The notes beneath the pieces are model-generated. The model did no database searches, was not told the DNA's origin, and worked only from the letters and a program-made list of their open reading frames with translations. This document shows, piece after piece, positions 76 to 20,303 of a stretch of DNA of 24,000 nucleotides (the stretch's first letter is position 1; every line of letters starts with the position of its first letter). The stretch is taken from the NCBI GenBank assembly GCA_964628795.1, contig CAZVMS010000216.1, forward strand, positions 12,164 to 36,163, read 5' to 3'. Both the position numbers and the translations under genes were made by a program. Source of the DNA: an uncultured Haloferula sp. Its GTDB lineage: Bacteria > Verrucomicrobiota > Verrucomicrobiia > Verrucomicrobiales > Akkermansiaceae.

Positions 76-207
76 ATGCCTCTGAGCATCGACAATGCCG
101 ACAATGTCGGCACGGAGTTCAACGATCTTCATCGTCCATCCAAAAATAAATCCGGATTTATCCCGGCGCAGGCCTTGAATTCATCCAATCGGGGTTTCAT
201 CACTTAT

Positions 208-2664: not shown

Positions 2665-2681
2665 CAAAACCAACCACCACC

Positions 2682-3989
2682 ATGAACCGCCGCCAATTCC
2701 TGCAAACCAGTTCCCTCGGCTTCGGCTGGCTCGGCCTCTCCGCCCTCGCCTCCGAGCCCGCGAAGAAATCCCCGAAACGCGTCATCTTCCTCTGCATGAG
2801 AGGCGCGCCGTCCCACGTCGATACCTTCGACTACAAACCCAAACTCAATGCCGATACCGGCAAGCCCGGCCCGCGCCCCGGCACGCAACTGTTAGGCTCG
2901 CGCTGGAAATTCTCCCAACACGGCCAAAGCGGCCATTACATGTCAGAGCTGTTCCCGCAACTCGCCGCCTGTGCCGATGATCTCTGCTTCCTCCACGGCA
3001 TGCAGACCGAAGTGCCCGCCCATCCGCAAGCCTACCTCCGCATGCACACCGGCAGCTCGCAGTTTGTCCGCCCCTCGCTCGGTGCATGGACGCACTACGG
3101 CCTCGGTTCGCTCAACGACAACCTCCCCGGCTTCATCACCCTCGCCCCACCCAGCGGACTCGGCGGCGCACAAAACTACGGCAGCGCCTTCCTCCCCGCG
3201 CAATTCCAAGGCACCCGCATCGGCGTGGAAAAACGCCCCATCGCCAGCGCCGAAGTCGCCAACCTGAAATCCGCCCTCACCCCCGATGCCCAGCGCAAAG
3301 AACTCGATCTCATCCAATCGCTCAACACCTCCAAGCTCACCCGAGAAACGCAGGACCCGCAGATCGAAGGTCTCATCCAGTCCTACGAACTCGCCTACCG
3401 CATGCAAAGCGCCATGCCCGGCGTGATGGATTTGGAAAAGGAAACCGAAGCCACCCGCAAACTCTACGGCATCGGCGAACCCGTCACCGACGACTTCGGC
3501 CGCAAGTGCCTGCTCGCCCGCCGCATGATCGAATCCGGCGTGCGCTTCGTCGAAATCAACCACGGCGATTGGGATCATCACTTCAACCTCGGCGAAGCCC
3601 TGCCCGCCAGTTGCGCCGCCGTCGATCTCCCGCTGCGCGGCCTGCTCACCGACCTGAAATCCCGCAGCCTCCTCCAAGACACCCTCGTCATCTGGGGCGG
3701 CGAATTCGGCCGCACCCCGCACGCCGAAGGCCAGGACGGCCGCGACCACAACGTCGGCGCCTTCACCATGTGGATGGCCGGCTGCGGCGTCAAAGCCGGC
3801 ACCCGCTACGGCGTCACCGACGACTACGGCTACGAGGCCGTCGATGGCAAAGTCAGCATCCACGACTGGCACGCCACCATCCTCCACCTGTTAGGCCTCG
3901 ATCACACCAAACTCACCCACCGCCACGCCGGCCGCGACTTCCGTCTCACGGACGTCCACGGCCGTGTCGTGAAAGAGATTGTCGCGTGA
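2682..3989 (+). CDS. DUF1501 family protein (sulfatase-like fold) with twin-arginine signal
   Basis: Tat-like N-terminus MNRRQFLQTSSLGFGWLGLSALA. DUF1501-typical blocks are VIFLCMRGAPSHVDTFDYKP, GDWDHH, VIWGGEFGRTP and GRDHN. It starts 18 bp after the PSCyt/PSD gene, the canonical pairing. Confidence 0.9.
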   Translation: MNRRQFLQTSSLGFGWLGLSALASEPAKKSPKRVIFLCMRGAPSHVDTFDYKPKLNADTGKPGPRPGTQLLGSRWKFSQHGQSGHYMSELFPQLAACADDLCFLHGMQTEVPAHPQAYLRMHTGSSQFVRPSLGAWTHYGLGSLNDNLPGFITLAPPSGLGGAQNYGSAFLPAQFQGTRIGVEKRPIASAEVANLKSALTPDAQRKELDLIQSLNTSKLTRETQDPQIEGLIQSYELAYRMQSAMPGVMDLEKETEATRKLYGIGEPVTDDFGRKCLLARRMIESGVRFVEINHGDWDHHFNLGEALPASCAAVDLPLRGLLTDLKSRSLLQDTLVIWGGEFGRTPHAEGQDGRDHNVGAFTMWMAGCGVKAGTRYGVTDDYGYEAVDGKVSIHDWHATILHLLGLDHTKLTHRHAGRDFRLTDVHGRVVKEIVA

Positions 3990-4342: not shown

Positions 4343-5293
4343 TCATGCTGGGAAACGATTCGAAATTTCCTCGCCGATGAATCTTCGGGCATGGGTAAGG
4401 GGCATGGCCGAGACTTCCACCTCCAGCAGGCAGTAGATGGCGTCGTTGAATGATGGCTCCCGATGAAATGCGTGGAAAGTGGCACCAAGGGAAAGGTAGT
4501 GGCGGAGCAGCGGAGGGATGGGCTTGGGCTTTCCGGTGCGATCGGTGATGTGGGGACGAAGCTCATCGATGGTGGTTGATTTCGCGGCGACGTCCGGGTG
4601 GTTGGAGGGAAACGGCAGGCGGGCAGTGGCGAGCGGGCCGCCGGGATGAAGGCGGTGACGGTGGAGCCAGGAGGTCATCAGGCGGCGGGAATCATTGCTG
4701 AAATCCGGTGACAGGGTGACCGACCCGAAGAGCCTTTGGATGCCGTGTCGCCGGACCATCGCGCCGAGGCCCTGCCAGAGCAGCGGCAGGGCGATGCGAT
4801 CGTTCTGATAGGCGGCGGCCACAAAAGACCGCGTGAGTTCCACGGCGCGGGAGTCGCGGGAAAAAAAGCCGGGGTCGAAGTGGAACATGTGGCTGAGATA
4901 TAGGTTGGGCAGTCCATGGTCCGGCAGCACTTCGGCTGTGAAGCCGAGCCGGTAGGCGCCCGCGATCCGCTTGGCGTTCCGGTCCCAGAGGACGAGTTGG
5001 CGATACCATGCGTCCTCGCGGGTCTGATCGCGGCCGAGGCCGGTGCCCTGACCGGACAAGCGGAAGGTGATTTCTCGCTGGCGGGTCAGTTCGTGAAACA
5101 GCGCGGGCGCTTCGTCGCGATGGAAATCCAGCACCTCGAAATCGCCCCGTGAAAGAACCCGCGTGGCTGGGTCGGCGGCCAATTTTCCGGCATCGCGATG
5201 GATGGCTGCCGGATCGAGGGCAGGGTCAATGGGGAGTGGACGGGTCGATTTTGTGGCAGAGCTCATAAAGGATGCGGGTGGCAGCGGGATCAT
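4343..5293 (-). CDS. OlsB-like GNAT N-acyltransferase (Acetyltransf_5 / hemolysin-like; lyso-aminolipid synthase type)
   Basis: Blocks typical of the OlsB/GlsB family are present: RQREITFRL..G, LWDRNAKRIAGAYRL, VELTRSFVAAAYQ, LLWQGLG, IPPLLRHYLSLGA and the C-terminal AIYCLLEVEV. The start is uncertain (ATG 5293 or ATG 5266). Either start overlaps the upstream acyltransferase gene by 41-68 nt. Confidence 0.75.
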   Translation of the reverse strand: MIPLPPASFMSSATKSTRPLPIDPALDPAAIHRDAGKLAADPATRVLSRGDFEVLDFHRDEAPALFHELTRQREITFRLSGQGTGLGRDQTREDAWYRQLVLWDRNAKRIAGAYRLGFTAEVLPDHGLPNLYLSHMFHFDPGFFSRDSRAVELTRSFVAAAYQNDRIALPLLWQGLGAMVRRHGIQRLFGSVTLSPDFSNDSRRLMTSWLHRHRLHPGGPLATARLPFPSNHPDVAAKSTTIDELRPHITDRTGKPKPIPPLLRHYLSLGATFHAFHREPSFNDAIYCLLEVEVSAMPLTHARRFIGEEISNRFPA

Positions 5294-6044
5294 TGTCGGG
5301 AAGGTCGTCGGGGGCCGGGAACAGCTTCACCAACAGCGGGCAGGGACGGCGGCGCAGGGCTTCGCGGGGCAACAACAGGCTGCGGAGCATGGGCCAGCGA
5401 AGCGGCGTTAATCGCAACAGCAGCCCGGGGCACAGCGGGATGTGAACGAGCATGATCCGCGCACCGGCCCGCCGCGCTATCCGGATCAGGTGCGGCGACC
5501 ACGGTTCGTCGAGTGCGCGGCCGCGGCGGTCTCGTTTCCCGGCGACCCGGCCGGAGGGAAACGCGCCGACCACGCCGCCCTGTTTCAGGTGTGCGAAGAC
5601 CTGGCGCAGGCCGCGGAGGTTGACCGCGGCGTCGGCGTCCCATCCAAAAGGATCCAGTGGGATGCTGTGGCGGGAAAATTCGGGTTTGGAGGCGATCCAT
5701 GGGTTGGTGAGAATTTTCCAGTCTTGGGGAGCAAGGGATTCTAACAGTCGCATCAGGATCAGCGCTTCGATCATCCCGGTCGGGTGGTTCGCAAGCACGA
5801 GCGTGCCGGTTTTCCCGGTGGACGGCGTTGGGGGCGGTACGAGTCTCCAGGTGACGCCAAGTTCCCGCAAGACGGCTTCGGAGAAGGCATCGGCGTTGCC
5901 GTCACGGGGCGCGGCGCGGCGGTGGACGCGGTTGATGGCGCGGATCCCGGCGAGGGTCTCGATGATCGGCAGGAACGGGCGAAGCCATGCGGACCGCAGC
6001 CACATCGAGATGTCGAGAAATGGAGGATCATGCGGCTTCTTCAT
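5226..6044 (-). CDS. PlsC-like (lysophospholipid/lyso-aminolipid) O-acyltransferase
   Basis: It has the acyltransferase block I H-x4-[DE] (LANHPTGMIEA) and a block III-like motif (GAFPSGRV). Its ATG overlaps the stop of the upstream NRDE gene (ATGA at 6041-6044). Adjacency to an OlsB-like gene is the OlsBA/GlsBA arrangement. Confidence 0.8.
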   Translation of the reverse strand: MKKPHDPPFLDISMWLRSAWLRPFLPIIETLAGIRAINRVHRRAAPRDGNADAFSEAVLRELGVTWRLVPPPTPSTGKTGTLVLANHPTGMIEALILMRLLESLAPQDWKILTNPWIASKPEFSRHSIPLDPFGWDADAAVNLRGLRQVFAHLKQGGVVGAFPSGRVAGKRDRRGRALDEPWSPHLIRIARRAGARIMLVHIPLCPGLLLRLTPLRWPMLRSLLLPREALRRRPCPLLVKLFPAPDDLPDNDPAATRILYELCHKIDPSTPH

Positions 6045-6770: not shown

Positions 6771-7262
6771 TCAACCAGCGGTCTGTTGGGTGAAGTGCCT
6801 CGCGGTGGATGGTGCCAGGCCGATCTCGTCCGCCACCGCGCGACCATGGTCCCGCAGCAGCATTCCGATCAGAGCGAGGTGATGGATGGTGTGGCTGAAG
6901 GCAAAACCCAGTTCGCGGCCGAGACTCGATTGCTGCCGGCCTTGCAGCGACTCTTTGACGAGCAGCGGCAGGTCGTGTGGCAGGCTTTCGATGCGCTCCC
7001 AGTCCGTGGATAGGATGTGTTGGATCGTCTGGCAGGCGATTTGCGGACAGGACTCGATGTCCGCATTTCTACGGCGCGCGTCGTAGTTCACCTCGCCGGC
7101 CCCGATGCCTTCGAAGAGGCATTGGTAGAACTCGATGCAATGCCGCACATGTCCGCCGACCGTTCCGCCAGGCAACAGTTTGCAGCGGTGCCGGAAGGCA
7201 TCCTCGCCGAGCGGGGTGATTGCCGCCAGCAGTTGCTTGAGGGCGCCGGGACTGGAAGTCAT
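6771..7262 (-). CDS. DinB-like (DinB_2/YfiT-type) putative metal-dependent enzyme
   Basis: His-containing helices typical of the DinB fold are present (GTVGGHVRHCIEFYQ; FSHTIHHLALIGMLLR). The chosen start is ATG 7262 (MTSSPGALKQLL) because it forms an ATGA overlap with the preceding small ORF. ATG 7274 is an alternative. The 7409 start of the track ORF is unlikely. Confidence 0.65.
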   Translation of the reverse strand: MTSSPGALKQLLAAITPLGEDAFRHRCKLLPGGTVGGHVRHCIEFYQCLFEGIGAGEVNYDARRRNADIESCPQIACQTIQHILSTDWERIESLPHDLPLLVKESLQGRQQSSLGRELGFAFSHTIHHLALIGMLLRDHGRAVADEIGLAPSTARHFTQQTAG

Positions 7263-7450
7263 GCGCGAATCCATGAAATGAGAGCGACCGCTCCCTGCAC
7301 AATCAGGAAGCCGAGGAGCAGCAGGGTTCCGGGGCACAGCCCTTTGGCACAGAGGCCCGTGCGGCAAGAAGCGTCCTCGCACTTGGGAGGTGTGCCGATT
7401 CGTTGCCAATTCGTGGCGGCGGGTGGTGCGGATGTTTCCGATGGTTTCAT
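7259..7450 (-). CDS. Small (63 aa) Cys-rich tail-anchored membrane protein, C-x4-C-x4-C-x4-C
   Basis: Translation: MKPSETSAPPAATNWQRIGTPPKCEDASCRTGLCAKGLCPGTLLLLGFLIVQGAVALISWIRA. It has four Cys at exact 5-residue spacing followed by one hydrophobic helix. Its stop overlaps the DinB-like ATG (ATGA at 7259-7262), and it is co-directional with the cluster. No homologue was recognised. Confidence 0.45.
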   Translation of the reverse strand: MKPSETSAPPAATNWQRIGTPPKCEDASCRTGLCAKGLCPGTLLLLGFLIVQGAVALISWIRA

Positions 7451-7611
7451 GGGGATAGGAGGTTCATTTCATGGGGAAGTTCCCGTGCGAAAACGCTTCC
7501 CATGCTCGAACCATGAGTCGCGCGGGCCGGAGCTTCCTTAACAAGGAATCTCGGGGTGTGGCGTGATGAGTTGGAGGTTCTAGGCAAGGTCGAGGTGGTG
7601 GTTCATCCCCA

Positions 7612-7950
7612 TCATTTCGCGTTGTGGTAGAGGTGCTTTTCGATGCGCTCCCTCGCTTCGCGGGGGAGCGGCTCGGAATCGTTCGTGTCAGGAGCCTCTT
7701 CGTGATGACAGCAGCGGACCCAGTGCCGGAGGTTTTCGAACTGGGCGGGAAGGTGACGGCAGATGCCGCAAACCAGCAGGTGCATGCGGAGGCGCATCGA
7801 ATCGACGGGCTTGAGCGGGCCATCCATGCGTTGCGACGAAAGCCGGAAGGCATCGCGGCAGGTCATGCGGGTAAGCTTGAGCAACGGCCACATCATGGCT
7901 TCCATGATGCGGTAGCGCAGCGGCGGGCGTGGCAGTGAGACGGGTTTCAT
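7612..7950 (-). CDS. Small anti-sigma factor, zinc-binding (zf-HC2/ZAS-like), no obvious TM segment
   Basis: The start ATG overlaps the sigma gene stop (ATGA at 7947-7950). It has a ZAS-like H-x3-C-x2-C motif (MHLLVCGICRH) preceded by MTCRDAFRLSSQRMDG, which resembles the anti-sigma N-terminus C..... L..Y.DG. The C-terminal part contains WVRCCHHEE. Confidence 0.65.
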   Translation of the reverse strand: MKPVSLPRPPLRYRIMEAMMWPLLKLTRMTCRDAFRLSSQRMDGPLKPVDSMRLRMHLLVCGICRHLPAQFENLRHWVRCCHHEEAPDTNDSEPLPREARERIEKHLYHNAK

Positions 7951-8513
7951 GGCTGGATGCCCTGGTTTTGGAGGCAGATGCGCAGTTGCTGGCGCGAGCG
8001 GGTGAGCAACACGGCGGCGCTGCCTTTGGTGACACCTGCGGCGGCGGCGGCGGAAGGGACGTCGAGGCCATCGATCTCGCGCAGGGTGAACAAGAGCCGC
8101 AGACGCTCGGGGAGTTTTTCCATGCAGGCGCGGATCCACGTGGCGATTTCACTGCGGTTGGTAGCTTCATCCGGTGGCGCTTCCAGGGCGGACATGCCGT
8201 GGTTGGGGTCGATGCGCCACGAGCCGTGGCGATCGAAGGCGGAATCCAGCGGGTCGGCGGATGCCTCGAAGGGATCGACGCCTTGGTCGGACGGCGTGCG
8301 TTTCGATTTCCGGAAATGATCGATGACTTTGAATTTCATGATGCCCAACAGCCAGGTGGAGAGTTGCGAACGGCCGTCAAAGGACTCGCGTCGTTGCCAT
8401 GCGGCGGTGAGGCAGTCCTGCACGAGATCCTCGGCGGCGTGATGATCCCTGACCTTTCCCAGCGCGAAGCGGTAGAGAGTGTCGGCATGTTGCATGAGAT
8501 CGTCGATGGTCAC
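7947..8513 (-). CDS. ECF (group 4) sigma-70 family RNA polymerase sigma factor
   Basis: Region 2 reads LYRFALGKVRDHHAAEDLVQDCLTAAWQRRESFDGRSQLSTWLLGIMKFKVIDHFRK. Region 4 reads LPERLRLLFTLREIDGLDVPSAAAAAGVTKGSAAVLLTRSRQQL. The track start at 8513 is a GTG, and the first ATG is at 8495. Confidence 0.9.
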   Translation of the reverse strand: MTIDDLMQHADTLYRFALGKVRDHHAAEDLVQDCLTAAWQRRESFDGRSQLSTWLLGIMKFKVIDHFRKSKRTPSDQGVDPFEASADPLDSAFDRHGSWRIDPNHGMSALEAPPDEATNRSEIATWIRACMEKLPERLRLLFTLREIDGLDVPSAAAAAGVTKGSAAVLLTRSRQQLRICLQNQGIQP

Positions 8514-8566
8514 GGTGACAAGGATGGCTTGCTGGGGATGAATGGCCAGACGGGATGTTCAGCCCG

Positions 8567-9067
8567 CTATGATGCATTTTCCGTTTTGCCCTGGAGTCGG
8601 CAACATCCGCCCTTGCAGAGGAAACGCCCGATGAGCGCATCCAGCGAGGCGCGGCCCGGACCGAAGGCGAGAACCACCAGGGAGACGATCAGATACGCGT
8701 AGGGTGCTTCGTCAGCGAATTCACCGAGACCGGCGAAGGCGTCCTCACGGTGTGCGGTGAGGTAGGCGACGATCATGGAAGCGGCGAGGGGAACCGCCGC
8801 GGTGCGCGACATCAGGCCGGCGACCAGCAGCAGTCCGCCGATCATTTCGACACCTCCTACGAAGGCGGCGTGGAATCCGGGCGCGGGGATGCCGAGCGAT
8901 TCGAAGAAGCCGGTGGTGCGTTCGAGATTGGTGAGCTTGCCCTTGCCGGTGAGGAAGAACGACCAGCCGATGGTGAGGCGGGCGAGCAGCAGGGTGCCAT
9001 CCGCGATCCAGGGCTGGGCGCGAGTGAAGAGGGAGCGGACGAGTTGGATGATTGCTTTGGATTTCAT
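8567..9067 (-). CDS. DoxX family membrane protein
   Basis: The preferred start is MKSKAIIQL (ATG 9067), 11 bp after the DUF2063 stop. It has the DoxX-like four-helix pattern (LLLARLTIGWSFFLTGKGKL, GIPAPGFHAAFVGGVEMIGGLLLVAGL, AAVPLAASMIVAYL, YLIVSLVVLAFGPG). It has an unusual Cys-rich tail, FLCKGGCCRLQG. Confidence 0.85.
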   Translation of the reverse strand: MKSKAIIQLVRSLFTRAQPWIADGTLLLARLTIGWSFFLTGKGKLTNLERTTGFFESLGIPAPGFHAAFVGGVEMIGGLLLVAGLMSRTAAVPLAASMIVAYLTAHREDAFAGLGEFADEAPYAYLIVSLVVLAFGPGRASLDALIGRFLCKGGCCRLQGKTENAS

Positions 9068-9078
9068 GATGCTTTCTG

Positions 9079-9876
9079 TTAGATGATGGCGAACCAGCCA
9101 TCGGCCTGCCAGGTGGCGCACCAGCGGCTGAGGGTATCGGTGCCGGGGATGTGGGGTGCGCTTTCCTCCAGCCAGTCGTCGAGGGACCAGGGGCGTCCGT
9201 GCAGCAGGGAAAGCATGGCGAACTCACCGGGTTCGAGAGAACGGTGGCGGACACCTCCCTCGCGGGTGCGCCAGACGGCGGCGTGATGCCGGTCACCCTC
9301 GCGCCAGCCGGATTCCGGATCGTGGAGCCAGGCGGAGGCATCGGCCTCGGTTTCGAGCAGGCGGACGTGGGCTTGCAGCGTGAATGATTCGTCGGCGACC
9401 TGCCTTGCGGTGGCGGGCGGAAGTTCGGCCGCTTCGAAACATGCCATCATCGACCACTCGACGGTGGCGATGGCGATGGCACGGCGGCGCAGCACAGGGT
9501 CGGTGATTTCCTTGCCGACAAACCGGGGCATCGCCCGTCCGAGGTGGCGCAGGGTGAAACTTTGCGACGGATGGGCGAGCAGATAGTTTTCCAACAAGTT
9601 CCAGAAACGTTCGTTGCCGAGAAGAGTCTTCAGGCCGGGGAAATCCTCGGCCACGGAATCGAGCAGGCGAAACCAATACTGGCGGTGATAGAGTTCCAGG
9701 CACTCGGCAGGAATCAGCGTGGGCGACGGGCGGAGCAGATCGTGGGCGGTGGAGAGGAACGCCGGGTCGTGCGGTTCGTCGGAGGCGGGCAGTTCGGTCG
9801 AGCGGCGGCTGGTGCCACGCAGCGGGAACTGCAGCGCGTCGAAAAAGCGGCGTTGGGTTTCAGCAAGCGGCGGCAT
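9079..9876 (-). CDS. DUF2063 domain protein (MNIO partner protein, BufC/HvfC/MbnC-like role)
   Basis: DUF2063-typical features are the N-terminal L.E.Q..F..AL..P and LELYHRQYWFRLLDSVAEDFPGLKTLLGNERFWNLLENYLLAHPSQSFTLRHLG. Its ATG at 9876 overlaps the DUF692 gene by 17 nt. Confidence 0.8.
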   Translation of the reverse strand: MPPLAETQRRFFDALQFPLRGTSRRSTELPASDEPHDPAFLSTAHDLLRPSPTLIPAECLELYHRQYWFRLLDSVAEDFPGLKTLLGNERFWNLLENYLLAHPSQSFTLRHLGRAMPRFVGKEITDPVLRRRAIAIATVEWSMMACFEAAELPPATARQVADESFTLQAHVRLLETEADASAWLHDPESGWREGDRHHAAVWRTREGGVRHRSLEPGEFAMLSLLHGRPWSLDDWLEESAPHIPGTDTLSRWCATWQADGWFAII

Positions 9877-10732
9877 GATGAGGCGTGCGTTGGGTGGCTT
9901 TGAAAAGCTCGGTGTCCCAGTAGGCGGAGGCTTTGAGCGCCTCGTTGTGGACTTCCTCGAAGGACGGGATGTGGGCGTCCCACTCCAGAAGCGTGGGTAC
10001 CGGGCCGCAGCGCTCGATGGCGCGGGCGTAGAGTTTCCACACCGGATCGATCACCGGGTGGTCGTGGGTGTCGATGATGAATCGCTCGTATTTTGAGTGG
10101 CCGGCGATGTGCATCTGCATGACCCGCTCCGGTTGGATGAAATCGACATATTCCAGCGGATCGAAGCCGTGGTTGATCGAGGAGACATAGATGTTGTTCA
10201 CGTCGAGTAGAATGCCGACATTGGCGCGTTCGACGACTTCGGCGAGAAATTCCCACTCGGTCATCTCGTCGTCGTTGAAGGCCGCGTAGCTGCTGACGTT
10301 TTCCACGGCCATCGGGATTTCGAGATAGTCCTGGGCGATGCGCAGGTTCTCGGCGATGCCGCGCGCCGCTTCGGTGGTATAGGGCATGGGCAGCAGGTCG
10401 TGGCTGAAGGTGCCGTCCACGCTGCCCCAGCAAAGGTGATCGGAAATCCACGGCGTGCGCGTCCGTTTGATGAGCGCCTTCAGGCGGCGCAGGTGGTCGA
10501 AATCGAGGCCTGCGGCATTCCCCGGGTAGAGCCCCACGCCATGCTGGACGACCTGGTATTGCTCCAGGATGCGGTCGAGCACGGCGAGGGGTCTTCCCCC
10601 GTCCACCATGAAATTCTCGGAGATGATTTCGAACCATGAAACGTCGGGCGTTTCCGAAAGGATATGATCGTAATGCGGCACGCGCAGTCCGATGCCGATG
10701 CTGAGCGGCTTGGTTTCCTGGTGCGGTTTCAT
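9860..10732 (-). CDS. DUF692 family multinuclear non-heme iron oxidase (MNIO; MbnB/BufB/HvfB-like)
   Basis: There is an essentially full-length DUF692/UPF0276 pattern: SIGIGLRVPHY, VSWFEIISENFM, VVQHGVGL, WISDHLCW, HDLLPMPYT, MAVENVSSY, EWEFLAEVV, ILLDVNNIYVSSINHGFDP, MHIAGHS, IDTHDHPV and PTLLEWD. Confidence 0.92.
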   Translation of the reverse strand: MKPHQETKPLSIGIGLRVPHYDHILSETPDVSWFEIISENFMVDGGRPLAVLDRILEQYQVVQHGVGLYPGNAAGLDFDHLRRLKALIKRTRTPWISDHLCWGSVDGTFSHDLLPMPYTTEAARGIAENLRIAQDYLEIPMAVENVSSYAAFNDDEMTEWEFLAEVVERANVGILLDVNNIYVSSINHGFDPLEYVDFIQPERVMQMHIAGHSKYERFIIDTHDHPVIDPVWKLYARAIERCGPVPTLLEWDAHIPSFEEVHNEALKASAYWDTELFKATQRTPHHAAAC

Positions 10733-10758
10733 GATGGTAGAAATGGAATGAGAGAAAT

Positions 10759-10791
10759 TCCGCGCGGACGACTTGCTGCCGCCCGCGCGGA
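10759..10791 (-). terminator. Intercistronic GC-rich stem-loop between precursor gene and MNIO gene (possible attenuator/partial terminator or mRNA-stabilising hairpin)
   Basis: TCCGCGCGG (10759-10767) and CCGCGCGGA (10783-10791) form a perfect 9-bp stem around a 15-nt loop. On the minus-strand transcript the hairpin is followed by AAUUUCUCUCAUUCCAUUUCU. Confidence 0.4.
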
Positions 10792-10801
10792 TGGGTGAGC
10801 C

Positions 10802-11092
10802 TCAGAGGATCGAGGAAGCGAGCTTGTCCTTGCCCTTGCAGCCGTCCTTGCCGGAGCACTTCTCCTTGTCGCCTTCTTTCTTTTTGCCATCGCATCCGTC
10901 CTTGCCGGAGCACTTGTCTTTCTCGGCGGCCAGGACGCTGGTGATGGATTCCTTCTTTTTGCCATCGCAGCCGTCCTTGCCAGAGCATTTTTCCTTGTCC
11001 GCATTGACATAGCCAATGGCGGCGGTGGCGCTGCCTGCGGCGAAGAGTCCGGCGAGTGCGGCGGTGGCGAGGGTTTTGGTGGTTGGATTCAT
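10802..11092 (-). CDS. Secreted Cys-repeat RiPP precursor peptide (bufferin/oxazolin-like; 96 aa)
   Basis: The preferred start is ATG 11092 (MNPTTKTLATAALAGLFAAGSATA|AIGY..., a Sec signal with an A-x-A site). The core contains three copies of (D/E)K(E/D)KCSGKDGC(D/K)GK, giving 6 Cys. It lies directly upstream of DUF692/DUF2063/DoxX on the same strand. Confidence 0.8.
   Translation of the reverse strand: MNPTTKTLATAALAGLFAAGSATAAIGYVNADKEKCSGKDGCDGKKKESITSVLAAEKDKCSGKDGCDGKKKEGDKEKCSGKDGCKGKDKLASSIL
10829..10999 (-). repeat. Three 42-nt coding repeats inside the precursor gene
   Basis: The units are at 10829-10870, 10883-10924 and 10958-10999. The two pairwise hand counts made (unit 1 vs unit 2, unit 1 vs unit 3) each give 36/42 identities. 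Each unit encodes one xKxKCSGKDGCxGK module. Confidence 0.85.
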
Positions 11093-11430
11093 GATGATTT
11101 CTTGTGGTTGTCTGTTTGTGGTTTGCCGCCTTCCGATGCCCGTGTGGCATCTCCGGCGCACTGGTGAGTCGTCCGGCGTTCGCGAGGCTTAACACGGATG
11201 ATGAAGTTTTTTCCTATTCCTCGGGTTGGCCCCCAAACCGGTAGGCATCACGAGAAATCATCCAGCCAAGACGAGTTGAGTCGATGTGGCCAAACCATGA
11301 TCCACCCGCCTGGCTCTCTTTGGTAGGGAGCGGATGTTGATTTTCCACGATGGGTTTCATGCCGCCCAAGCTTCGCAACAGAAAGTTGATGAGCGTCCTA
11401 CTCGGATGTGTTAGGCGGCTGAACCGGCGG

Positions 11431-11642
11431 TCATGAAAACAGACTCTGATTCAACGAGCGGTATTGGAGCGCCTCAAGAATGTGGTTTGGGGCGAATGGA
11501 TTCGCTACCGGCGAGGTCGGCGAGGGTAAGGGCGACTTTAAGGATGCGGTCGTGGGCGCGGGCGGGAATGCGTTGGCGGTGGTTTTCGGTCTGGCCGGGG
11601 GAGCAGCGGCATTCTCTCTTGGTGTCGCCGTAGTAGCCGCAG
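11431..11642 (-). pseudogene. comM: comM/yifB 3'-terminal fragment with authentic C-terminus
   Basis: The minus-strand translation reads (stop)[74 protein letters not shown]. It has the same internal deletion junction as the 4044-4292 fragment. Unlike that fragment, it keeps the canonical ComM end (EA.QYR.L). An in-frame stop lies immediately upstream, and there is no 5' part of the gene. Confidence 0.7.
11502..11642. repeat. Direct repeat copy B (141 bp, comM-derived)
   Basis: This is the partner of 4051-4191, with 129/141 identities and the same orientation. Confidence 0.85.
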
Positions 11643-11735
11643 GGCTGTGGAAATCATTTGCATTTTAGTTCCCACACTTGCGAGCAAGGCCGGATGATCA
11701 AGGAACGGGGATTTGTCATTTTTTTATAAGGAGAT

Positions 11736-11762
11736 GGTCAGCATTGTCCGGATTACGGTAGT
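11736..11762 (+). promoter_or_regulatory. Candidate ECF-type promoter (GGTCAG-N14-CGGTAGT) upstream of the sigma/FecR-like operon
   Basis: The sequence is ATGGTCAGcattgtccggattaCGGTAGT. It is preceded by an AT-rich T7 tract (11719-11725) and ends 5 nt before GTG 11768 and 14 nt before ATG 11777. The same bipartite motif with identical 14-nt spacing occurs at 16288-16314 and 20304-20330. Confidence 0.45.
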
Positions 11763-11767
11763 ACAGG

Positions 11768-12325
11768 GTGAATGACATGAACTCGGCATCCCAGCATCGC
11801 CCTCAGGATTCCCGTCAAGAGGCGGAGATCGCACTCGGCATTGCCTCTCTGAGGCTGCCACTACGCGGCTATCTGCACACGCTCGTTCCGGACCGGGCAG
11901 CTTGTGATGATCTGGTCCAAGAGACGTTGCTATTTCTCTGGGAACGGAGGGAAAGCGCCGATGAATCGACCCCGCTCAAGACATGGGCCTTCAAGGTGGC
12001 GTGGTTCAAGTCGATGGCCTGGCATCGCGACCGTCGGCGGGACCGCCTGGTCTATTTTTCCGACGACATGCTTCAACAGATTGCCCCATTGGCCGAGGCG
12101 ATGAGCAGCACCGCCGAGAATCGACTGGAAGCCCTGCGCCACTGCCTGGCTGGCCTCCCGGAAGAGGATTTGGCCTTGCTGCGGCTCAAGTATGTCAATC
12201 AGGGATCGCTCACCAGCTACGCCAACGCGCGGGGTTGGAAACCAAACCGCGTGCAGAAAGCCCTCTCTCGCCTGCGCCTTGCGTTACGCCATTGCATTCG
12301 GACTCGCCTACTTTCAGAATCATGA
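11768..12325 (+). CDS. ECF sigma-70 family sigma factor (Rhodopirellula/Verrucomicrobium-type)
   Basis: Region 2 reads DDLVQETLLFLWERRES...LKTWAFKVAWFKSMAWHRDRRR. Region 4 reads LPEEDLALLRLKYVNQGSLTSYANARGWKPNRVQKALSRLRLALRHC. The track start 11768 is a GTG, and ATG 11777 is equally possible. Its stop overlaps the next ATG (ATGA at 12322-12325). Confidence 0.9.
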   Translation: MNDMNSASQHRPQDSRQEAEIALGIASLRLPLRGYLHTLVPDRAACDDLVQETLLFLWERRESADESTPLKTWAFKVAWFKSMAWHRDRRRDRLVYFSDDMLQQIAPLAEAMSSTAENRLEALRHCLAGLPEEDLALLRLKYVNQGSLTSYANARGWKPNRVQKALSRLRLALRHCIRTRLLSES

Positions 12326-13842
12326 ACACCCCCACCCCAGAACTGCGGGATCTACTCGACCGCCTGATCGACGAGGATGGCCTGAGTCGCTCCGATATGG
12401 GCCGACTTGAAGAGCTGATGAGCGAGCCGGAAATCATGTCCTATTGCTGCGAAATGCTGCTGCATGAGTCGCTCATGCCTGAGGCCCTTGCGACCATGGA
12501 AACCGCGCTTTCGCATGTCCATGGAGATCAGCAGCCAGTTCGATCGGGTGTGATGGGTCGTATTGCCCGGATTCTTCCGCTGGCGGCGGCTGCCGGACTC
12601 TCCTTTTTCGCAGGGCTACTGGTCGGCGATAATCCGTCTCCTCCGCCGGCATCCGCCGCCGCTCCACCCGCCGGATTCACCACAGACCACGCCGCCAAGG
12701 TGACCGGCCTGATGGGCGTCGTCTGGCAAGACAACGCCGCCCCGACCGTCATTGATGGCTCGGTGAACGCACAAAGGGTCGCGTTCAAGAGCGGATTGGT
12801 CGAACTGACTTACGCCAGCGGCGCGCGCGTCACCCTCGAAGGTCCGGCCGATTTCACCGTGTCCGATCCGACTTCCGGCCGACTCTCAGCCGGCAAACTC
12901 GTGGCCTACGTGCCCAAGGGCGCGGAAGGATTTACCGTCGATTACGGCAATGGTCAGGTCGTTGACCTTGGCACCGAGTTCGCGATGGATCTCGCCGCGA
13001 ACGGCAAAATGGAACTCGGCGTGTTCGAGGGCGAAGTGGAGCTTCACCTGCCCGACGAAACTCCATTGTTACTTAACCGCAGCCAGGCAATGGTGCACGA
13101 TCGGAATGCGGAAGAACCACTCCGCCCCGTGCCCTTCGACCGCGCCAAGTTCGTCCGCGAGCTTCCGAATCGGGACATTCCATGGGCGATAAAATCCTCC
13201 GAACCGACGGAGCTGGAACTCGACATCAGCCACCTCATCTGGAAGTCAGCGGAATACCGGGCCATCTTCAAGTGGTTCTCTGGGAAGGACGCTGTGGAAA
13301 TCCGCCACGTCGAACTCCGCCGGGACGGTGAGCTGATTGCCGCAGACCCGCATCCCGGGCAGACCGGCCTGCTTCTTCATGTGAAGGATAACATCTACGA
13401 CCTCACGATTCCTTCCGGCTACTATCAACCCGGCCGCTGGACCCTCCACGCCACCATCGCCCAATTGCCGCGAACCGGTGGAATGACCCGCTACCGCGGC
13501 CCGGTCGATAGCTCGGGAGTCATGGTCTTGGAGGAAGGCATGGTAAACCGGGCGCAGGCAGCTGACTTCATCGGTGCCTGGAGTTATTCGTTTGCCGGTG
13601 CCCGCTTCGTCCGCCGGTTCCACGCCGATGGCACCATCACGGTCACCAAGAACGGACAACGGCAGCCCAAAGCCTTCGCCAACTGCTCTTGGTGGGTGGA
13701 CAAGGGCGTTCTTCATGCGGAGATCCCGAACGGCGACGGATTGGTGGAGACCCACATCCTGCGCGACCGCGACACCTTGATCTTCACCAACCGGTCATTT
13801 GGCAATGCGGTTCGTGTTGCGGAAGAGGGCAGCGGCGATTGA
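12322..13842 (+). CDS. FecR-like transmembrane anti-sigma factor with an uncharacterised C-terminal domain of about 230 aa
   Basis: The chosen start is ATG 12322 (MNTPTPELRDLLDRLIDEDGLS), coupled to the sigma stop by an ATGA overlap. It has a single TM (IARILPLAAAAGLSFFAGLLVG) and a FecR-type beta-rich region (GLVELTYASGARVTLEGPADFTV...GFTVDYGNGQVVDLGTEFAMDL...GVFEGEVELH). The rest of the protein (from about IPWAIKSSEP onward) was not recognised. Confidence 0.8.
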   Translation: MNTPTPELRDLLDRLIDEDGLSRSDMGRLEELMSEPEIMSYCCEMLLHESLMPEALATMETALSHVHGDQQPVRSGVMGRIARILPLAAAAGLSFFAGLLVGDNPSPPPASAAAPPAGFTTDHAAKVTGLMGVVWQDNAAPTVIDGSVNAQRVAFKSGLVELTYASGARVTLEGPADFTVSDPTSGRLSAGKLVAYVPKGAEGFTVDYGNGQVVDLGTEFAMDLAANGKMELGVFEGEVELHLPDETPLLLNRSQAMVHDRNAEEPLRPVPFDRAKFVRELPNRDIPWAIKSSEPTELELDISHLIWKSAEYRAIFKWFSGKDAVEIRHVELRRDGELIAADPHPGQTGLLLHVKDNIYDLTIPSGYYQPGRWTLHATIAQLPRTGGMTRYRGPVDSSGVMVLEEGMVNRAQAADFIGAWSYSFAGARFVRRFHADGTITVTKNGQRQPKAFANCSWWVDKGVLHAEIPNGDGLVETHILRDRDTLIFTNRSFGNAVRVAEEGSGD

Positions 13843-13990
13843 GTCGAGCGGGAGACGGTCACGCTCTTGCGGAATTCAAAGCGCCGCCCGTCAGCAAACC
13901 GGCATTTGTGGTACTAGGCTGTGCAGCTTGCTTTTGCTCCAAAGGCTTTCCAACTCCGCATTTGCCCGACGACCCACCCCTCTTGAATTC

Positions 13991-16240
13991 ATGTTAAGCG
14001 ATTTGTTCCGATGGATTGTTTTTGCCCTCGGCCTCTCAACTGCCTTTCCGGCACTGGCGGATAGGCCTGCGGCGCCCGGAGCGCCAGCCGCAGCGGCTGT
14101 CATCCAACGCCTGCTGCCGGAGCACGCCGATGACTTTGTTTGCGAAATCCTCGCGGGAAACAAGGATCTCGACGTGTTTGAAATCACGACCCGCGATGGA
14201 AAAATCGTGCTTCGAGGCAACCGGCCCGTGTCGATCACCGCAGCGTTCAACCACTATCTGAAATACGTCGCGGGCGGTCATCTCTCGTGGAGCGGCGACC
14301 AGCTCGATCTGGCAAAACCGCTGCCGCTACCGACAGAACCCATCCGCATCGAGAGCCGCTTCCGCCATGGTTACGCGTTCAACTACTGCACATTCAGCTA
14401 CACCATGGCCTGGTGGGACTGGCCGCGCTGGGAACGGGAGATCGATCTGATGGCCGCCAACGGCATCGACCTGCCGCTCGCCATCACCGCTACCGAGGCG
14501 GTCTGGCTCAATGTCCTGCAATGCTTCGGCTATACCAAGGACGAGGCGAAACGATTCATCGCCGGCCCCGGTTACACCGCCTGGTGGCTGATGGGAAATC
14601 TCGAGGGTCGTGGCGGCCCGATCACCGACACTTGGATCGAATCCCGCGTGGCCCTTCAGCGGAAGATTCTTGCCCGCATGCGGGAGCTTGGCATGAGGCC
14701 GGTCATGCAGGGGTTTGTAGGGCTCGTTCCCAACAACTTGCCGCGAAAAGTGCCGGGCACAAGAGTGATCCCCCAAGGCCGTTGGCTCGCCGACCAGCGT
14801 CCCGCCGTCCTCCATCCGGAGGATCCCCTGTTCGCCCGCATGGCCTCGGCATGGTATGAGGAAAAGGAGAAGCTATTCGGGCACTCCGATGCCTTCGCCG
14901 GAGACCTGTTTCATGAGGGCGGCAAAACAGGGGGGATCAGTGTTGCCGCCACCGTCCGCACCGTGCAGCAGGCCATGCTCGCCGCAGACCCGCGCGCTTT
15001 ATGGATCATCCAGGGATGGGGTGGAAACCCGAAGGGTGAGCTGCTCACGGCACTCCATCGCGAGAACACGATGGTGGTCGAGTTGTGCAATGAATTCTGG
15101 CGCAATTGGGTTCCCACCAAGGGTTTCAATGGCACTCCATGGACTTTTGGGACGGTCGTGATCTACGGCGGGAACACCGCGCTTCATGGCCGGCTTGACA
15201 CCATCGCCAACAACCTCAAGGACGCCCTTGCCAGCAAAACCCCACCGATCGGCATCGGCATGGCATGGGAGGGAACCGAAAGCAATCCGGTGGTCAACGA
15301 TTTCCTTTGGGATGCCCGCTGGAGCACCGACGTGCCGGACCCGGGGCATTGGATTGATGGCTATGCCACCCGCCGCTACGGCACCCACCGCCGCGAGGTG
15401 CGTGATGCATGGAAGCTCCTGCTGCAGTCCGCCTACGCCTCATGGCCGAATCAGCGCCGCCCGGGCGAGTCCGTCTTCTGCGCCCGGCCGTCACTGGATG
15501 TTCGAAAGGTTTCGCCATTCGCCGCCAGCATCGAGGTTCCCTATGACCAACGATTGCTGCGCGAGGCGCTGCGCCTTCTGCTGGAAGTCGCGCCCGATTG
15601 TGCCGACCGCGAAACCTATCGCCATGACCTGGTCGATTTCACCCGCCAGTTCATGGCGAATGCCGCGCAGATCCCCTACCGGGAAATGGTCGCCGCCTTC
15701 CGCTCCGGGAATGCGTCCGAGTTCGAGGCCGCAGCAAAGCAATTCATCGACATGCTCGACGATCAGAGCCGCCTGCTGGCCGCGGATTCCCACTTTCTGC
15801 TTGGACGCTGGCTGTCCGACGCACGTGCTTCCGCCGGTGACGATACGGTACAACGCGAACAAAACGAGCGTAACGCCCGCCTGCTCATCACCACCTGGAC
15901 GCAGGAGCGCTCCGGACTCGGCGACTACGCGTGGCGCGAGTGGAGCGGCCTGCTCGATCGCTACCACCTCCCGCGCTGGCAGGCCTTCATCGACGATTTG
16001 CGCGGTCGCCTCGCCGGACGCAAACCCTCACCACCGAACTACTTCGCCATGGAATCCGCCTGGGCCGCCCGCCAGTGGGAAAACGATTCCTACCCACTTG
16101 CGGTTTCCGGTGATCCGGTGCTCCTGAGTCGCGAGTTGTTAGATCGTTGGGGGCCGATGCTCGATGACGCCAAGCGCTACAGCCCGCCCGTGACCCCTCG
16201 GAAACCTGAAATCATCGAAGAGGCCACCGAAGCCCGCTGA
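13991..16240 (+). CDS. Alpha-N-acetylglucosaminidase (glycoside hydrolase family 89, NAGLU-like), secreted
   Basis: The preferred start is ATG 13991 (MLSDLFRWIVFALGLSTAFPALA, a signal peptide). NAGLU-typical blocks are AAFNHYLKYVAGGHLSWSGDQL, YAFNYCTFSYTMAWWDWPRWEREIDLMAANGIDLPLA, GPGYTAWWLMGNLEG, RMRELGMRPVMQGFVG and LWIIQGWGGNP. Confidence 0.9.
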   Translation: MLSDLFRWIVFALGLSTAFPALADRPAAPGAPAAAAVIQRLLPEHADDFVCEILAGNKDLDVFEITTRDGKIVLRGNRPVSITAAFNHYLKYVAGGHLSWSGDQLDLAKPLPLPTEPIRIESRFRHGYAFNYCTFSYTMAWWDWPRWEREIDLMAANGIDLPLAITATEAVWLNVLQCFGYTKDEAKRFIAGPGYTAWWLMGNLEGRGGPITDTWIESRVALQRKILARMRELGMRPVMQGFVGLVPNNLPRKVPGTRVIPQGRWLADQRPAVLHPEDPLFARMASAWYEEKEKLFGHSDAFAGDLFHEGGKTGGISVAATVRTVQQAMLAADPRALWIIQGWGGNPKGELLTALHRENTMVVELCNEFWRNWVPTKGFNGTPWTFGTVVIYGGNTALHGRLDTIANNLKDALASKTPPIGIGMAWEGTESNPVVNDFLWDARWSTDVPDPGHWIDGYATRRYGTHRREVRDAWKLLLQSAYASWPNQRRPGESVFCARPSLDVRKVSPFAASIEVPYDQRLLREALRLLLEVAPDCADRETYRHDLVDFTRQFMANAAQIPYREMVAAFRSGNASEFEAAAKQFIDMLDDQSRLLAADSHFLLGRWLSDARASAGDDTVQREQNERNARLLITTWTQERSGLGDYAWREWSGLLDRYHLPRWQAFIDDLRGRLAGRKPSPPNYFAMESAWAARQWENDSYPLAVSGDPVLLSRELLDRWGPMLDDAKRYSPPVTPRKPEIIEEATEAR

Positions 16241-18485: not shown

Positions 18486-18525
18486 ACTTGGCACCCGCCA
18501 CACCATTTCCAACGAATCTCATCCC

Positions 18526-19347
18526 ATGCACTTCCGCCCGATCCTCACCGTCACGCTGCTGGCATTCGCCTGCCTGCCAGCCCTTTGCGCCGCCAGCCCT
18601 CCCGCCGCCACTGCCGCCGGGGTGATCGCCAAAAACCAGGATGCGCTCGTCGAAATCCAAGCCACTCTCAGCGTCAAACCCGAACTCATCGACGGCCCGC
18701 CCGGCATCGGCGAGATGATCAACGAGCAACCGGCGGAAGAGCAACCCGCCAACGTCAACGGCGTGGTGATTCACTCCAGCGGACTGGTCGTCGCGCCGCT
18801 CGCCGCGCTCGACCCGGGCACCATGCTTGGCGGCGGCATGGAACTCGAAACCCCGATGGGACCCATCAAACTGGGCATGAAAACGACCATTTCCAGCCTC
18901 AAAATCATCACCGCTGATGGTCACGAATATCCCGCCCAAATCATCCTCAGGGAACCGGCCGCCGGCTTGGCCCTGATCCAGCTCAGCACCCCGCCGGAAG
19001 GAAGCCTGCCCACCGTAATACTGGCACCCGGCTTGCCTGCTCCGTCGCCATTCTCCCAGTTGTTTGATTTGGTCCGGTTGGAAGCCGACTTTGGTCGCGC
19101 GCCAACGGTGCGTTTGATCCGGATGGTCCAAATGACCTCGCCGCCGGTCCCGCTATTCGACGTGACCGGTCCGCTCCCTACCCCCGGCTCCGCCGTGTTT
19201 GACATGAGCGGCCGTTTTCTCGGCCTCTCGGTGATCCCACTGCGCGGCGAGGGGGGGGGCTCATCCATTGCCGACATCGCACAAACTGGGCCCAGCGTCC
19301 TGCCGACGTCCGAAATCCTCCGTCTCTGTGCCAAAGCCATGCCCTGA
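18526..19347 (+). CDS. Secreted trypsin/HtrA-fold-like protein, apparently lacking the catalytic triad
   Basis: It has a signal peptide (MHFRPILTVTLLAFACLPALCA). Protease-domain-like blocks are aligned by eye to the upstream HtrA: NGVVIHSSGLVVAPLAAL vs GSGAIISPDGYVLTNHHVA (no His); AAGLALIQL vs LADLAVIKL (Asp to Gly); LPTPGSAVFDMSGRFLGLSV vs GGNSGGPLVDTAGRIIGVNE (Ser position is Pro). It starts 40 bp after the HtrA-like stop. Confidence 0.6.
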   Translation: MHFRPILTVTLLAFACLPALCAASPPAATAAGVIAKNQDALVEIQATLSVKPELIDGPPGIGEMINEQPAEEQPANVNGVVIHSSGLVVAPLAALDPGTMLGGGMELETPMGPIKLGMKTTISSLKIITADGHEYPAQIILREPAAGLALIQLSTPPEGSLPTVILAPGLPAPSPFSQLFDLVRLEADFGRAPTVRLIRMVQMTSPPVPLFDVTGPLPTPGSAVFDMSGRFLGLSVIPLRGEGGGSSIADIAQTGPSVLPTSEILRLCAKAMP

Positions 19348-19383
19348 TACTGGTTTAAAATCCACCTTACTCTTCATCACTTT

Positions 19384-20151: not shown

Positions 20152-20175
20152 GTGCGGGTGGAACAGGGAACGCAC

Positions 20176-20253: not shown

Positions 20254-20303
20254 TTGCGCCAATCCACCTCTCAGCCTCAATGGTAAGGCTCTTTGAGAAA
20301 ATC

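Follow-up and report, generated by a model that had tools for sequence, protein, structure and literature searches.

What does the DNA around a small cysteine-rich gene in an uncultured member of the Verrucomicrobiota encode, and does its product belong with the copper-buffering peptides known from other bacteria? The locus lies in a stretch of 24,000 nt (the window) from an uncultured Haloferula sp. (GenBank assembly GCA_964628795.1, contig CAZVMS010000216.1, positions 12,164 to 36,163 of the forward strand), where four minus-strand open reading frames (ORFs) encode a precursor peptide, a multinuclear non-heme iron oxidase (MNIO, DUF692), a DUF2063 partner and a DoxX-family membrane protein (Table 1). 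A first-pass annotation of the window had placed these genes and described them as the bufferin/oxazolin-type core of a cluster for a peptide that is ribosomally synthesised and then modified post-translationally (RiPP). The four ORFs are present at those coordinates and are tightly packed, with an overlap of 17 nt between the DUF2063 and MNIO genes, a gap of 11 bp from the DUF2063 gene to DoxX and the precursor gene 69 nt upstream of the MNIO gene. The same four genes and lengths came out of independent gene calling on four metagenome contigs with an identical peptide. The locus is probably a bufferin/captophorin-type RiPP operon of a Luteolibacter-like lineage of Verrucomicrobiales, with a product that is likely a periplasmic, Lys-rich 5-thiooxazole peptide buffering copper.

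The maturation enzyme was assigned to PF05114 (MbnB_TglH_ChrH/DUF692, E=2.7e-104) and, among the NCBIfam models, which distinguish bufferin-type from oxazolin-type maturases, it passed MNIO_BufB (NF050167) with 342.5 bits against a cut-off of 310. It scored 243 bits on the HvfB model (NF003818), under the cut-off of 360, while the control FonB gave the reciprocal result (HvfB 409.8, BufB 254.8 bits), and the 'oxazolin-type' half of the earlier label was dropped accordingly. Other NCBIfam models scored lower (ApyH 84, ChrH 52 and MbnB 36 bits, the last against a cut-off of 325). The methanobactin system MbnABC also joins an MNIO-family enzyme to a partner for the four-electron oxidation of Cys in a ribosomal peptide, yielding copper ligands, but apart from the enzyme score it differs in a leader peptide that is not a Sec signal, in its oxazolone-thioamide product and in its use for copper uptake, as a secreted chalkophore. 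Across 64 aligned MNIOs, H64, H99, E144, D177, N180, H208, H212, D221, H223, E250 and D252 do not vary (one sequence has a gap at E250 and D252), and these residues, D252 aside, are candidate iron-site positions by comparison with MbnB structures. Relatives of the enzyme in the PDB are 3bww, 8hci and 7dz9. Identity to the characterised FonB is 42%, and D252 is aligned with FonB D249, the proposed catalytic base (PMC13097082). The residue following this Asp is Phe in 'Lys-Cys' (FonB-type) and Asp in 'Cys-Lys' (BufB2) enzymes (PMC13097082); it is Ala253 in the window MNIO and Ala or Ser throughout its clade, and FonB Arg16 and Phe250 correspond to Val18 and Ala253. The idea that Asp or Ala at residue 253 tracks the loss of Lys after Cys was borne out in part only, as Tepidisphaeraceae combine Ala enzymes with C-K-G precursors, and serves as no more than a lead.

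The partner passed PF09836, the N-terminal DUF2063 domain (56.5 bits, cut-off 27.2), with a C-terminal match to NGO1945_C, which resembles a RiPP recognition element (RRE), at E=8e-5, under its cut-off; a PDB sequence search with this protein gave no match. The DoxX protein passed PF07681 (74.4 bits, cut-off 23.6); clusters of this class often, though not always, have such a gene. The proposed family assignments of 9860-10732 to DUF692 and 9079-9876 to DUF2063 were thus recovered, and with PF05114, PF09836, PF07681 and MNIO_BufB all passed, the claim of an MNIO, DUF2063 and DoxX RiPP cluster of the bufferin superfamily stands.

The precursor itself matches no curated family. Its N-terminus, by inspection, has a basic n-region, the hydrophobic stretch TLATAALAGLFAAG and A-T-A ahead of a predicted cut after residue 24, and residues 1-24 (11092-11021) are predicted, by eye and from conservation in the family alignment (A1), to be a Sec-type signal peptide. 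The predicted core of 72 aa (11020-10805; 18 Lys, 11 Gly, 14 acidic residues, 6 Cys, pI 8.7) consists of three 18-aa units, each with K-C-S-G-K-D-G-C, and ends in -IL. These units correspond to direct repeats that an ungapped repeat finder recovered; Tandem Repeats Finder, run on the precursor gene, returned a spurious 9-nt array only and missed the 54-nt copies. The Cys pairs are spaced CX5C and not C-x4-C, the spacing in the conserved motifs of the 'CxxxxC' precursor family (Antoine et al. 2025), which its authors define also by an HMM of their own. Against Pfam (E<=0.01) the peptide matched no family and no DUF2282, in agreement with the first-pass annotation that it is not of that type. 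At permissive E-values Pfam and NCBIfam returned low-complexity, collagen-like noise and the BufA2 model (NF050166) at E=2.5 only, with 8.3 bits against a cut-off of 60. The HvfA models NF050137 and NF050188 gave no match even at E<=10, and the EGKCG motif is absent; the positive control FonA scored 71.4 and 49.1 bits on these two models.

The peptide nevertheless belongs to a sizeable family, with 43 homologues found by single-sequence search and at least 206 clusters by profile search. Homologue N-termini agree with the ATG at 11092 (alignment A1), and an MNIO gene adjoins every precursor homologue whose context was examined. Annotation of the 206 clusters gave one collagen-repeat Pfam match, likely spurious, and no other, and the few named family records are 'hypothetical' or similarly uninformative. 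Named members come from Luteolibacter, Akkermansiaceae or Verrucomicrobiota, together with one Alphaproteobacteria and one Bacteroidota entry, and among named records the branch ending in -IL is confined to Verrucomicrobiales. Across 121 fetched members, 563 of 594 Cys (95%) stand in a C-x-x-K context, at least two CX5C pairs occur in 85 and the -IL end in 76; I95 and L96 are nearly invariant among the closer family (alignment A1). Judging from these homologues and from the conserved start and context, the precursor ORF is no high-GC artefact. Another frame holds a 493-aa, Arg/Pro/His-rich ORF (9714-11195, minus strand) that runs across both the precursor and the MNIO gene; it is no gene but a shadow ORF of the kind typical at high GC.

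Table 1 Coordinates of the features of the locus within the window.
Feature	Position	Strand	Basis or remark
Precursor gene (bufA-like), 96 aa, 6 Cys	11092-10802	minus	ORF list
MNIO (DUF692) gene, BufB-type, 290 aa	10732-9860	minus	PF05114, NF050167
DUF2063 partner gene (BufC / PME type 1), 265 aa	9876-9079	minus	PF09836
DoxX-family membrane protein gene (BufD/HvfX-like), 166 aa	9067-8567	minus	PF07681
ECF sigma factor gene, 188 aa	8513-7947	minus	Sigma70_r2 + r4_2 domains; 53 bp past DoxX, no own promoter motif
Soluble zinc-finger (ZAS) anti-sigma gene, 112 aa	7950-7612	minus	zf-HC2; 4-nt overlap with sigma gene
Three 54-nt (18-codon) direct repeats, Cys units	10820-10873, 10874-10927, 10949-11002	minus	Ungapped repeat finder, 74-85% identical
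ECF-type promoter P1, GTTAAG-N16-CGACT[CA]	11193-11167	minus	~75 nt upstream of precursor start; predicted
Second ECF promoter copy P2	7542-7516	minus	In 337-bp gap past anti-sigma gene; predicted
GC-rich hairpin, 14-bp stem, 5-nt loop	10759-10791	minus	Precursor-MNIO gap; terminator-like site
Probable co-regulated second operon, five tightly packed genes	7450-4343	minus	Behind P2
63-aa Cys-rich membrane protein, uncalled ORF	7450-7259	minus	Four Cys (KCEDASCRTGLCAKGLCPG), C-terminal membrane helix
DinB-like protein, 167 aa	7274-6771	minus	Weak Pfam support, E=0.014
TANGO2-like protein, 241 aa	6766-6041	minus	Family searches
O-acyltransferase, OlsF-N/GlsA-like, 272 aa	6044-5226	minus	Family searches
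N-acyltransferase, OlsF-C/GlsB-like, 307 aa	5266-4343	minus	Family searches

A scan of one genome per GTDB species yielded 67 loci with related MNIOs (L numbers below denote these and other loci compared), and the homologous DUF692 loci do carry a comparable small Cys peptide gene, as the first-pass annotation had required of them. The closest MNIOs (86-87% identity) come from Luteolibacter metagenome-assembled genomes (MAGs), which bears out the earlier attribution to a verrucomicrobial genome. Those at 73-87% identity derive from Luteolibacter, Akkermansiaceae and other Verrucomicrobiales, including the cultured Luteolibacter pohnpeiensis KCTC 22041, which has an orthologous cluster (L010), and at these loci every findable precursor lies upstream of the MNIO gene, carries C(S/K)GK(D/E)GC units and ends in -IL. 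In a neighbour-joining tree the MNIOs of the -IL loci form one clade. Its sister clade (67-73% identity to the window MNIO) is large and spans Opitutaceae, Acidobacteriota and Planctomycetota; the precursors sampled from it show an H-x-C-K-G-x-N-x-C-K-G-x-G-G-C pattern and match the BufA2 model at E~1e-8. Hybrid precursors with 9-11 Cys, in which a CSGKDGC unit stands N-terminal to a Buf2-type six-Cys domain, occur at L024, L030, L033, L041, L044 and L050, mostly in Opitutaceae (L033 and L044 are from Chthoniobacterales), with their ORFs just upstream of position 7001 of the locus (1539 in L033). Scores on the BufA2 model fall stepwise from 32-35 bits for Buf2-like peptides through 16.6 for Luteolibacter CKGKDGC peptides to 8.3 for the window peptide. 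Taken together with the sister clade and the hybrids, this gradient suggests that the window precursor is best understood as an offshoot of the Buf2/'Cys-Lys' type that has diverged and expanded its repeat. The first-pass annotation had held that the product could not be read off from described examples; a precursor that grades into BufA2-like peptides makes the product reasonably predictable.

More distant CSGKDGC peptides of other lineages likewise adjoin MNIO genes. One alphaproteobacterial locus (L072, 3710-7438) combines a CSGKDGC-type precursor with a fused MNIO-DUF2063 protein (558 aa) and has a sigma and NrsF pair upstream. At three loci with MNIOs of 40-44% identity (L063, L065 and L066; Myxococcota/Nannocystaceae MAGs and one unclassified) the precursors are lipoprotein-like, with an L-V/F-P-A-C lipobox and 5-6 (S/T)T(A)GCPG repeats, and their ORFs end ~100 nt before the MNIO gene; on these features they would be a lipid-anchored precursor type.

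Two copies of a predicted extracytoplasmic function (ECF)-type promoter, P1 and P2, lie in the window, where the pattern GTTAA-N15-19-CGACT was observed twice against 0.02 expected. In an alignment of upstream regions, (T/C)GTTAAG-N16/17-CGACTCA stands ~75-100 nt ahead of the precursor start at most family loci (among them L005-L008, L011-L013, L015, L016 and L067, with a variant in L010). The layout of P1 resembles that of the Caulobacter sigmaF promoter, GTAACC-N16-CGAA, which was defined experimentally and drives buf1 and buf2 (PMC3511200). A sigma-70 consensus promoter scan of 7200-11800 found none, which fits control by an ECF sigma factor. L016 has two paralogous precursor genes (5199-5504 before DoxX and 8835-9140 after DUF2063), each with its own promoter motif. 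The hairpin in the precursor-MNIO gap has a folding energy of -29.5 kcal/mol (z = -5.68), and 14 of 15 folded loci have a comparable hairpin, unrelated in sequence, behind the precursor stop, L070 being the one without. Its retention with unrelated sequence suggests partial termination or RNA stabilisation, and the hairpin probably sets the precursor:enzyme ratio in the precursor's favour. An Rfam scan of the whole window matched no family.

Past DoxX the operon continues into an ECF sigma factor gene and a soluble zinc-finger anti-sigma (ZAS) gene. Sigma orthologues lie between the DoxX and MNIO genes in L007, L008, L011, L012, L014, L015, L016 and L067 and after DoxX in L010 and L073, and the order precursor-DoxX-sigma-antisigma-MNIO-DUF2063 recurs in at least eight related loci. 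Its position inside the cluster in relatives indicates that the regulator pair belongs to the cluster. The larger co-transcribed accessory set proposed in the first-pass annotation was thus borne out for the sigma/anti-sigma pair, which is conserved with the cluster, but not for the DinB-like, TANGO2 and acyltransferase genes, which form a separate operon with its own motif copy. The best NCBIfam match of the sigma factor is TIGR02943, at 127.7 bits under the cut-off of 162.2. The anti-sigma scored 32 bits on zf-HC2 (PF13490), above the cut-off of 22.2, and 47.9 bits on NF052368; it has the full ZAS pattern, C31-x25-H57-x3-C61-x2-C64, and no membrane segment. Among family orthologues with an intact downstream ORF, H-x3-C-x2-C is kept in 11 of 11 and the upstream Cys in 10 of 11. 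On this pattern the anti-sigma is of the ZAS type, with zinc binding and redox switching predicted.

Two described regulatory systems invite comparison. Like the SigR-RsrA switches, the locus has a soluble anti-sigma of ~110 aa with the C-x25-H-x3-C-x2-C motif, co-transcribed with its ECF sigma factor, and an apparent regulon that includes thiol/redox genes; the anti-sigma misses the RsrA equivalog cut-off (25 bits against 62.5), and a link to a RiPP metallophore of the periplasm has not been described for SigR regulons. The bufferin 1 or gig operon, governed by SigF-NrsF, has the same order of precursor, MNIO, DUF2063 and DoxX genes, a TIGR02943-type ECF sigma factor and, as noted, a promoter of similar layout. 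It differs in its DUF2282 precursor, with four conserved Cys, and in its membrane anti-sigma NrsF (DUF1109). NrsF (PF06532) was not found at the window locus, where the anti-sigma is zf-HC2. With NrsF at the alphaproteobacterial locus and a ZAS protein in the window, related peptides stand under different anti-sigma types across phyla.

Behind P2 lies a second operon. Its first ORF (63 aa) shares 16 nt with the start of the DinB-like gene. Five small, conserved homologues have the motif C-(S/A)-(K/R)-G-L-C-P-G-T in common, and the ORF is therefore probably a real, unannotated small-protein family. The two acyltransferases are apparently, from their family matches, a split pair for aminolipid (ornithine/glycine lipid) synthesis, in one operon behind an ECF promoter. 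The TANGO2, DinB-like and acyltransferase genes were considered as part of the RiPP core and rejected, as the genes of this operon are missing from 66 of the 67 scanned MNIO loci, the remaining one, L006, having a DinB-like gene of 31% identity; they probably share its regulon, with a thiol/redox flavour. A metagenome contig that is unrelated and richer in AT (L075, 1-2681) carries a sigma factor/zf-HC2 anti-sigma pair, an ORF of 109 aa and genes for an AhpC/redoxin protein, the 63-aa protein and a DinB-like protein (65% identical), with the GTTAA-N-CGACT motif ahead of the 63-aa gene; this set points to a conserved ZAS-controlled module independent of MNIO genes. In the closest Luteolibacter MAG (L005, 4084-6461) the motif stands ahead of two genes immediately upstream of the precursor, one for an FAD disulfide oxidoreductase of 506 aa and one for a thioredoxin-fold protein that is deiodinase/AhpC-like; the former, a MerA-like member of the PRK06370 subfamily, scores 370 against the MerA equivalog cut-off of 454.

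Other genes surround these operons in the window. On the plus strand a divergent operon (11480-16240) has genes for a 62-aa membrane-like protein rich in Gly and Ala, another ECF sigma factor (11777-12325), an anti-sigma resembling FecR (12322-13842) and an alpha-N-acetylglucosaminidase of the NAGLU family; it is not present at related loci and is unrelated to the MNIO cluster. The flanks (76-3989 and 16362-23937, both plus strand) hold a PSCyt1/PSCyt2/PSD1 and DUF1501 pair, a trypsin-PDZ (HtrA-like) protease of 707 aa and a PATR autotransporter-repeat protein of 1155 aa, genes typical of Planctomycetota/Verrucomicrobiota and consistent with the taxonomic assignment.

How, then, would such a cluster work? 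Gene content, protein families, conserved residues, synteny, promoter motif and hairpin are direct observations; for the chemistry, export, metal and inducing signal we infer the following course. Stress, likely a cytoplasmic thiol-reactive insult (copper, another soft metal, an oxidant or an electrophile), would free the ECF sigma factor from the soluble zinc-finger anti-sigma, and the freed sigma factor would transcribe from GTTAAG-N16-CGAC promoters. P1 would drive the precursor, MNIO, DUF2063, DoxX, sigma and anti-sigma genes, with the hairpin keeping the precursor message in excess, while P2 would co-induce the small Cys-rich membrane protein, the DinB-like and TANGO2-like proteins and the aminolipid acyltransferases. 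In the cytoplasm the MNIO, guided by its DUF2063/RRE partner, would convert cysteines in C-x-G-K contexts to 5-thiooxazoles in an O2-dependent reaction (-4 Da each), with four to all six Cys expected to be converted. By analogy the mass shift would be -18 Da (four Cys and one disulfide, as in bufferin 2) or -24 Da (all six, as in oxazolin). After Sec export and signal peptidase cleavage after Ala24, the 72-residue Lys-rich peptide would offer three CX5C units as paired thiooxazole ligands that buffer excess periplasmic copper, with about three Cu predicted per peptide. DoxX would have some redox role in the membrane.

The predicted chemistry follows from the BufB assignment and from published systems. 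Of the MNIO-PME1 systems whose precursors have a Sec signal, all those characterised form 5-thiooxazoles and bind copper (PMC11626156; PMC13097082), and the 5-thiooxazole systems comprise bufferins 1 and 2, fontiphorin, gonophorin and the reassigned oxazolin. The last of these revises the first-pass annotation, which had given oxazolin an oxazolone-thioamide, since reassigned to 5-thiooxazole (PMC13097082; bioRxiv 10.64898/2026.06.05.730506). That annotation had also proposed that modified Cys become unreactive to alkylation; bufferin 1 shows +57 Da (iodoacetamide) together with -4 Da (PMC11626156), so a 5-thiooxazole Cys is still alkylated and loss of reactivity is the wrong readout. Among the closest known systems is bufferin 2 of Caulobacter vibrioides (BufA2-BufB2-BufC2; the BUF_6/12Cys or 'Cys-Lys' captophorins), with which the locus shares a BufB-type MNIO, a DUF2063/PME1 partner, a Sec-signal-like N-terminus, six Cys in C-x-G-K contexts and CX5C spacing; the closest MNIOs outside the window's clade are, moreover, those paired with BufA2-like peptides, and hybrids exist. 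Beyond the precursor's low BufA2 score, the locus departs from bufferin 2 in the tandem 18-aa repeat, Lys-rich linkers and conserved -IL of its peptide, in the Lys at Cys+1, which is not conserved in the window type, in Ala253 as opposed to BufB2 Asp251, in having DoxX, which Caulobacter buf2 does not have, and in its in-operon sigma/ZAS pair.

Several points weigh against this reading. The precursor fails every curated precursor model, its signal peptide was called by inspection, and its product is a prediction from characterised systems of other precursor types. AlphaFold2, run with a 35-sequence alignment, gave the precursor no confident fold (pLDDT 46.6, pTM 0.11), whereas BufA1 and BufA2 are small proteins with confidently predicted folds (PMC11626156), so that site selection and metal stoichiometry may differ. 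Ala253 next to the catalytic Asp means that substrate rules are not directly transferable. The partner matches the HvfC family at E=7e-10, under the equivalog cut-off, and the DoxX protein scores 67.2 bits on HvfX, missing the cut-off of 80. The cytoplasmic redox-type anti-sigma and the thiol/redox neighbours that share its promoter motif mean, finally, that the physiological trigger and target could be other than copper.

This last point leads to the alternative that survives best, though we hold it to be unlikely, which keeps the cluster and the modification of Cys by the MNIO but gives the peptide a role other than copper buffering: it might sequester another soft metal (Hg, Au, Cd, Ag or Zn) or act as a periplasmic redox/electrophile scavenger in a thiol-stress regulon. 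The RsrA-like soluble ZAS protein, set against the membrane NrsF of the copper/metal-responsive buf1 clusters, argues for it, as does the company the motif keeps, ahead of the MerA-like oxidoreductase and thioredoxin-fold protein in L005, of the Cys-rich/DinB-like pair beside a redoxin in L075 and of the DinB-like gene in the window; gig/buf operons were, besides, first tied to gold, chromium and cadmium responses (PMC3511200; PMC11626156). Yet bufferins 1 and 2, oxazolin, fontiphorin and gonophorin all bind copper or protect from it, and the L005 oxidoreductase falls under the MerA cut-off. Somewhat more doubtful still is the proposal that the -IL peptides form a captophorin branch with a mechanism of its own: a Lys-rich 'beads-on-a-string' metallophore that is unfolded, has a bis-thiooxazole per CX5C, is recognised by the DUF2063 partner via the invariant -IL as a C-terminal follower or via an internal hydrophobic linker, and not via a folded core, and stands under cytoplasmic thiol-sensing ZAS control. 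If true, this switch would tie a metallophore of the periplasm to a broader regulon for thiol/redox and membrane-lipid stress.

The two remaining alternatives are both very improbable. One takes the locus for an oxazolin/fontiphorin-type system (HvfABCX of Haemophilus influenzae, FonABC; the 'Lys-Cys' or EGKCG captophorins), whose four-gene content is the same and whose precursors look similar at ~95 aa, of which the signal peptide takes ~24, and in having three short repeats of two Cys each amid Gly, Lys and acidic residues: at 96 aa with three such repeats and Lys before three of its six Cys, the window peptide is much like HvfA (95 aa, three AEGKCGEGKCG), it has no confident fold, as is stated for short EGKCG domains, and its MNIO aligns with FonB at the catalytic Asp. 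It was rejected on the model scores with their reciprocal controls, the window missing the HvfB, HvfC and HvfX cut-offs while passing BufB, and matching neither HvfA model while FonA matches both; the spacing is CX5C, not CX4C, Lys stands at +3, as opposed to always at -1, FonB Arg16/Phe250 are replaced by Val18/Ala253, and the nearest enzyme relatives are paired with BufA2-like peptides. The other, that the small Cys/Lys-rich ORF is no MNIO substrate at all but a spurious low-complexity ORF or an unmodified metallothionein-like peptide, the enzyme having some other target, fits the failure of every family model to recognise the peptide and the UniRef label 'low-complexity protein' on the L. 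pohnpeiensis homologue, but runs against a family of at least 206 clusters, in which the start, the signal-peptide-like N-terminus, the spacing of the Cys and the C-terminus are conserved, a place upstream of the MNIO gene of the same locus even where gene order is rearranged, its own conserved promoter and trailing hairpin, and an MNIO clade that matches the peptide subfamily.

The bufferin/captophorin reading also fixes how far the locus is new. Published surveys count >24,000 MNIO-PME1 loci, 33 of them in Verrucomicrobiota, of which 19 in Verrucomicrobiales. They also have precursor bins named 'other repeat' and 'other Cys-rich', and 'hundreds' of Cys peptides with a signal peptide stand unclassified; in the two landscape papers the supplements make no mention of CSGKDGC-type motifs or Luteolibacter and give cluster counts only for Verrucomicrobiales. 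The cluster has every genomic feature of the bufferin/captophorin class, among them a Cys-rich precursor of under 200 aa, and falls outside the three named precursor families and the SigF-NrsF module, which, with the survey counts, places it in an unnamed precursor subfamily within a known and widespread cluster class. It is a real but essentially ordinary bufferin/captophorin cluster. What goes beyond the searchable literature is the -IL subfamily together with an MNIO clade of its own, the hybrids that tie this subfamily to Buf2, a promoter and a hairpin that are both conserved, an anti-sigma of the soluble ZAS type and the co-regulated Cys-rich/DinB-like operon.

Bufferins and captophorins are now seen as being among the largest RiPP classes and as a widespread bacterial copper defence, and all characterised examples come from Pseudomonadota and from three precursor types. 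The locus would refine this known system, not open a new one. With C-x-G-K contexts, Ala at the specificity position and a peptide without a predicted fold, it offers a natural test of how BufB-type enzymes choose their Cys, and with its promoter motif, attenuating hairpin and soluble ZAS anti-sigma a concrete, testable circuit distinct from the SigF/NrsF paradigm, which the orthologous cluster of the cultured Luteolibacter pohnpeiensis KCTC 22041 makes feasible to follow up.

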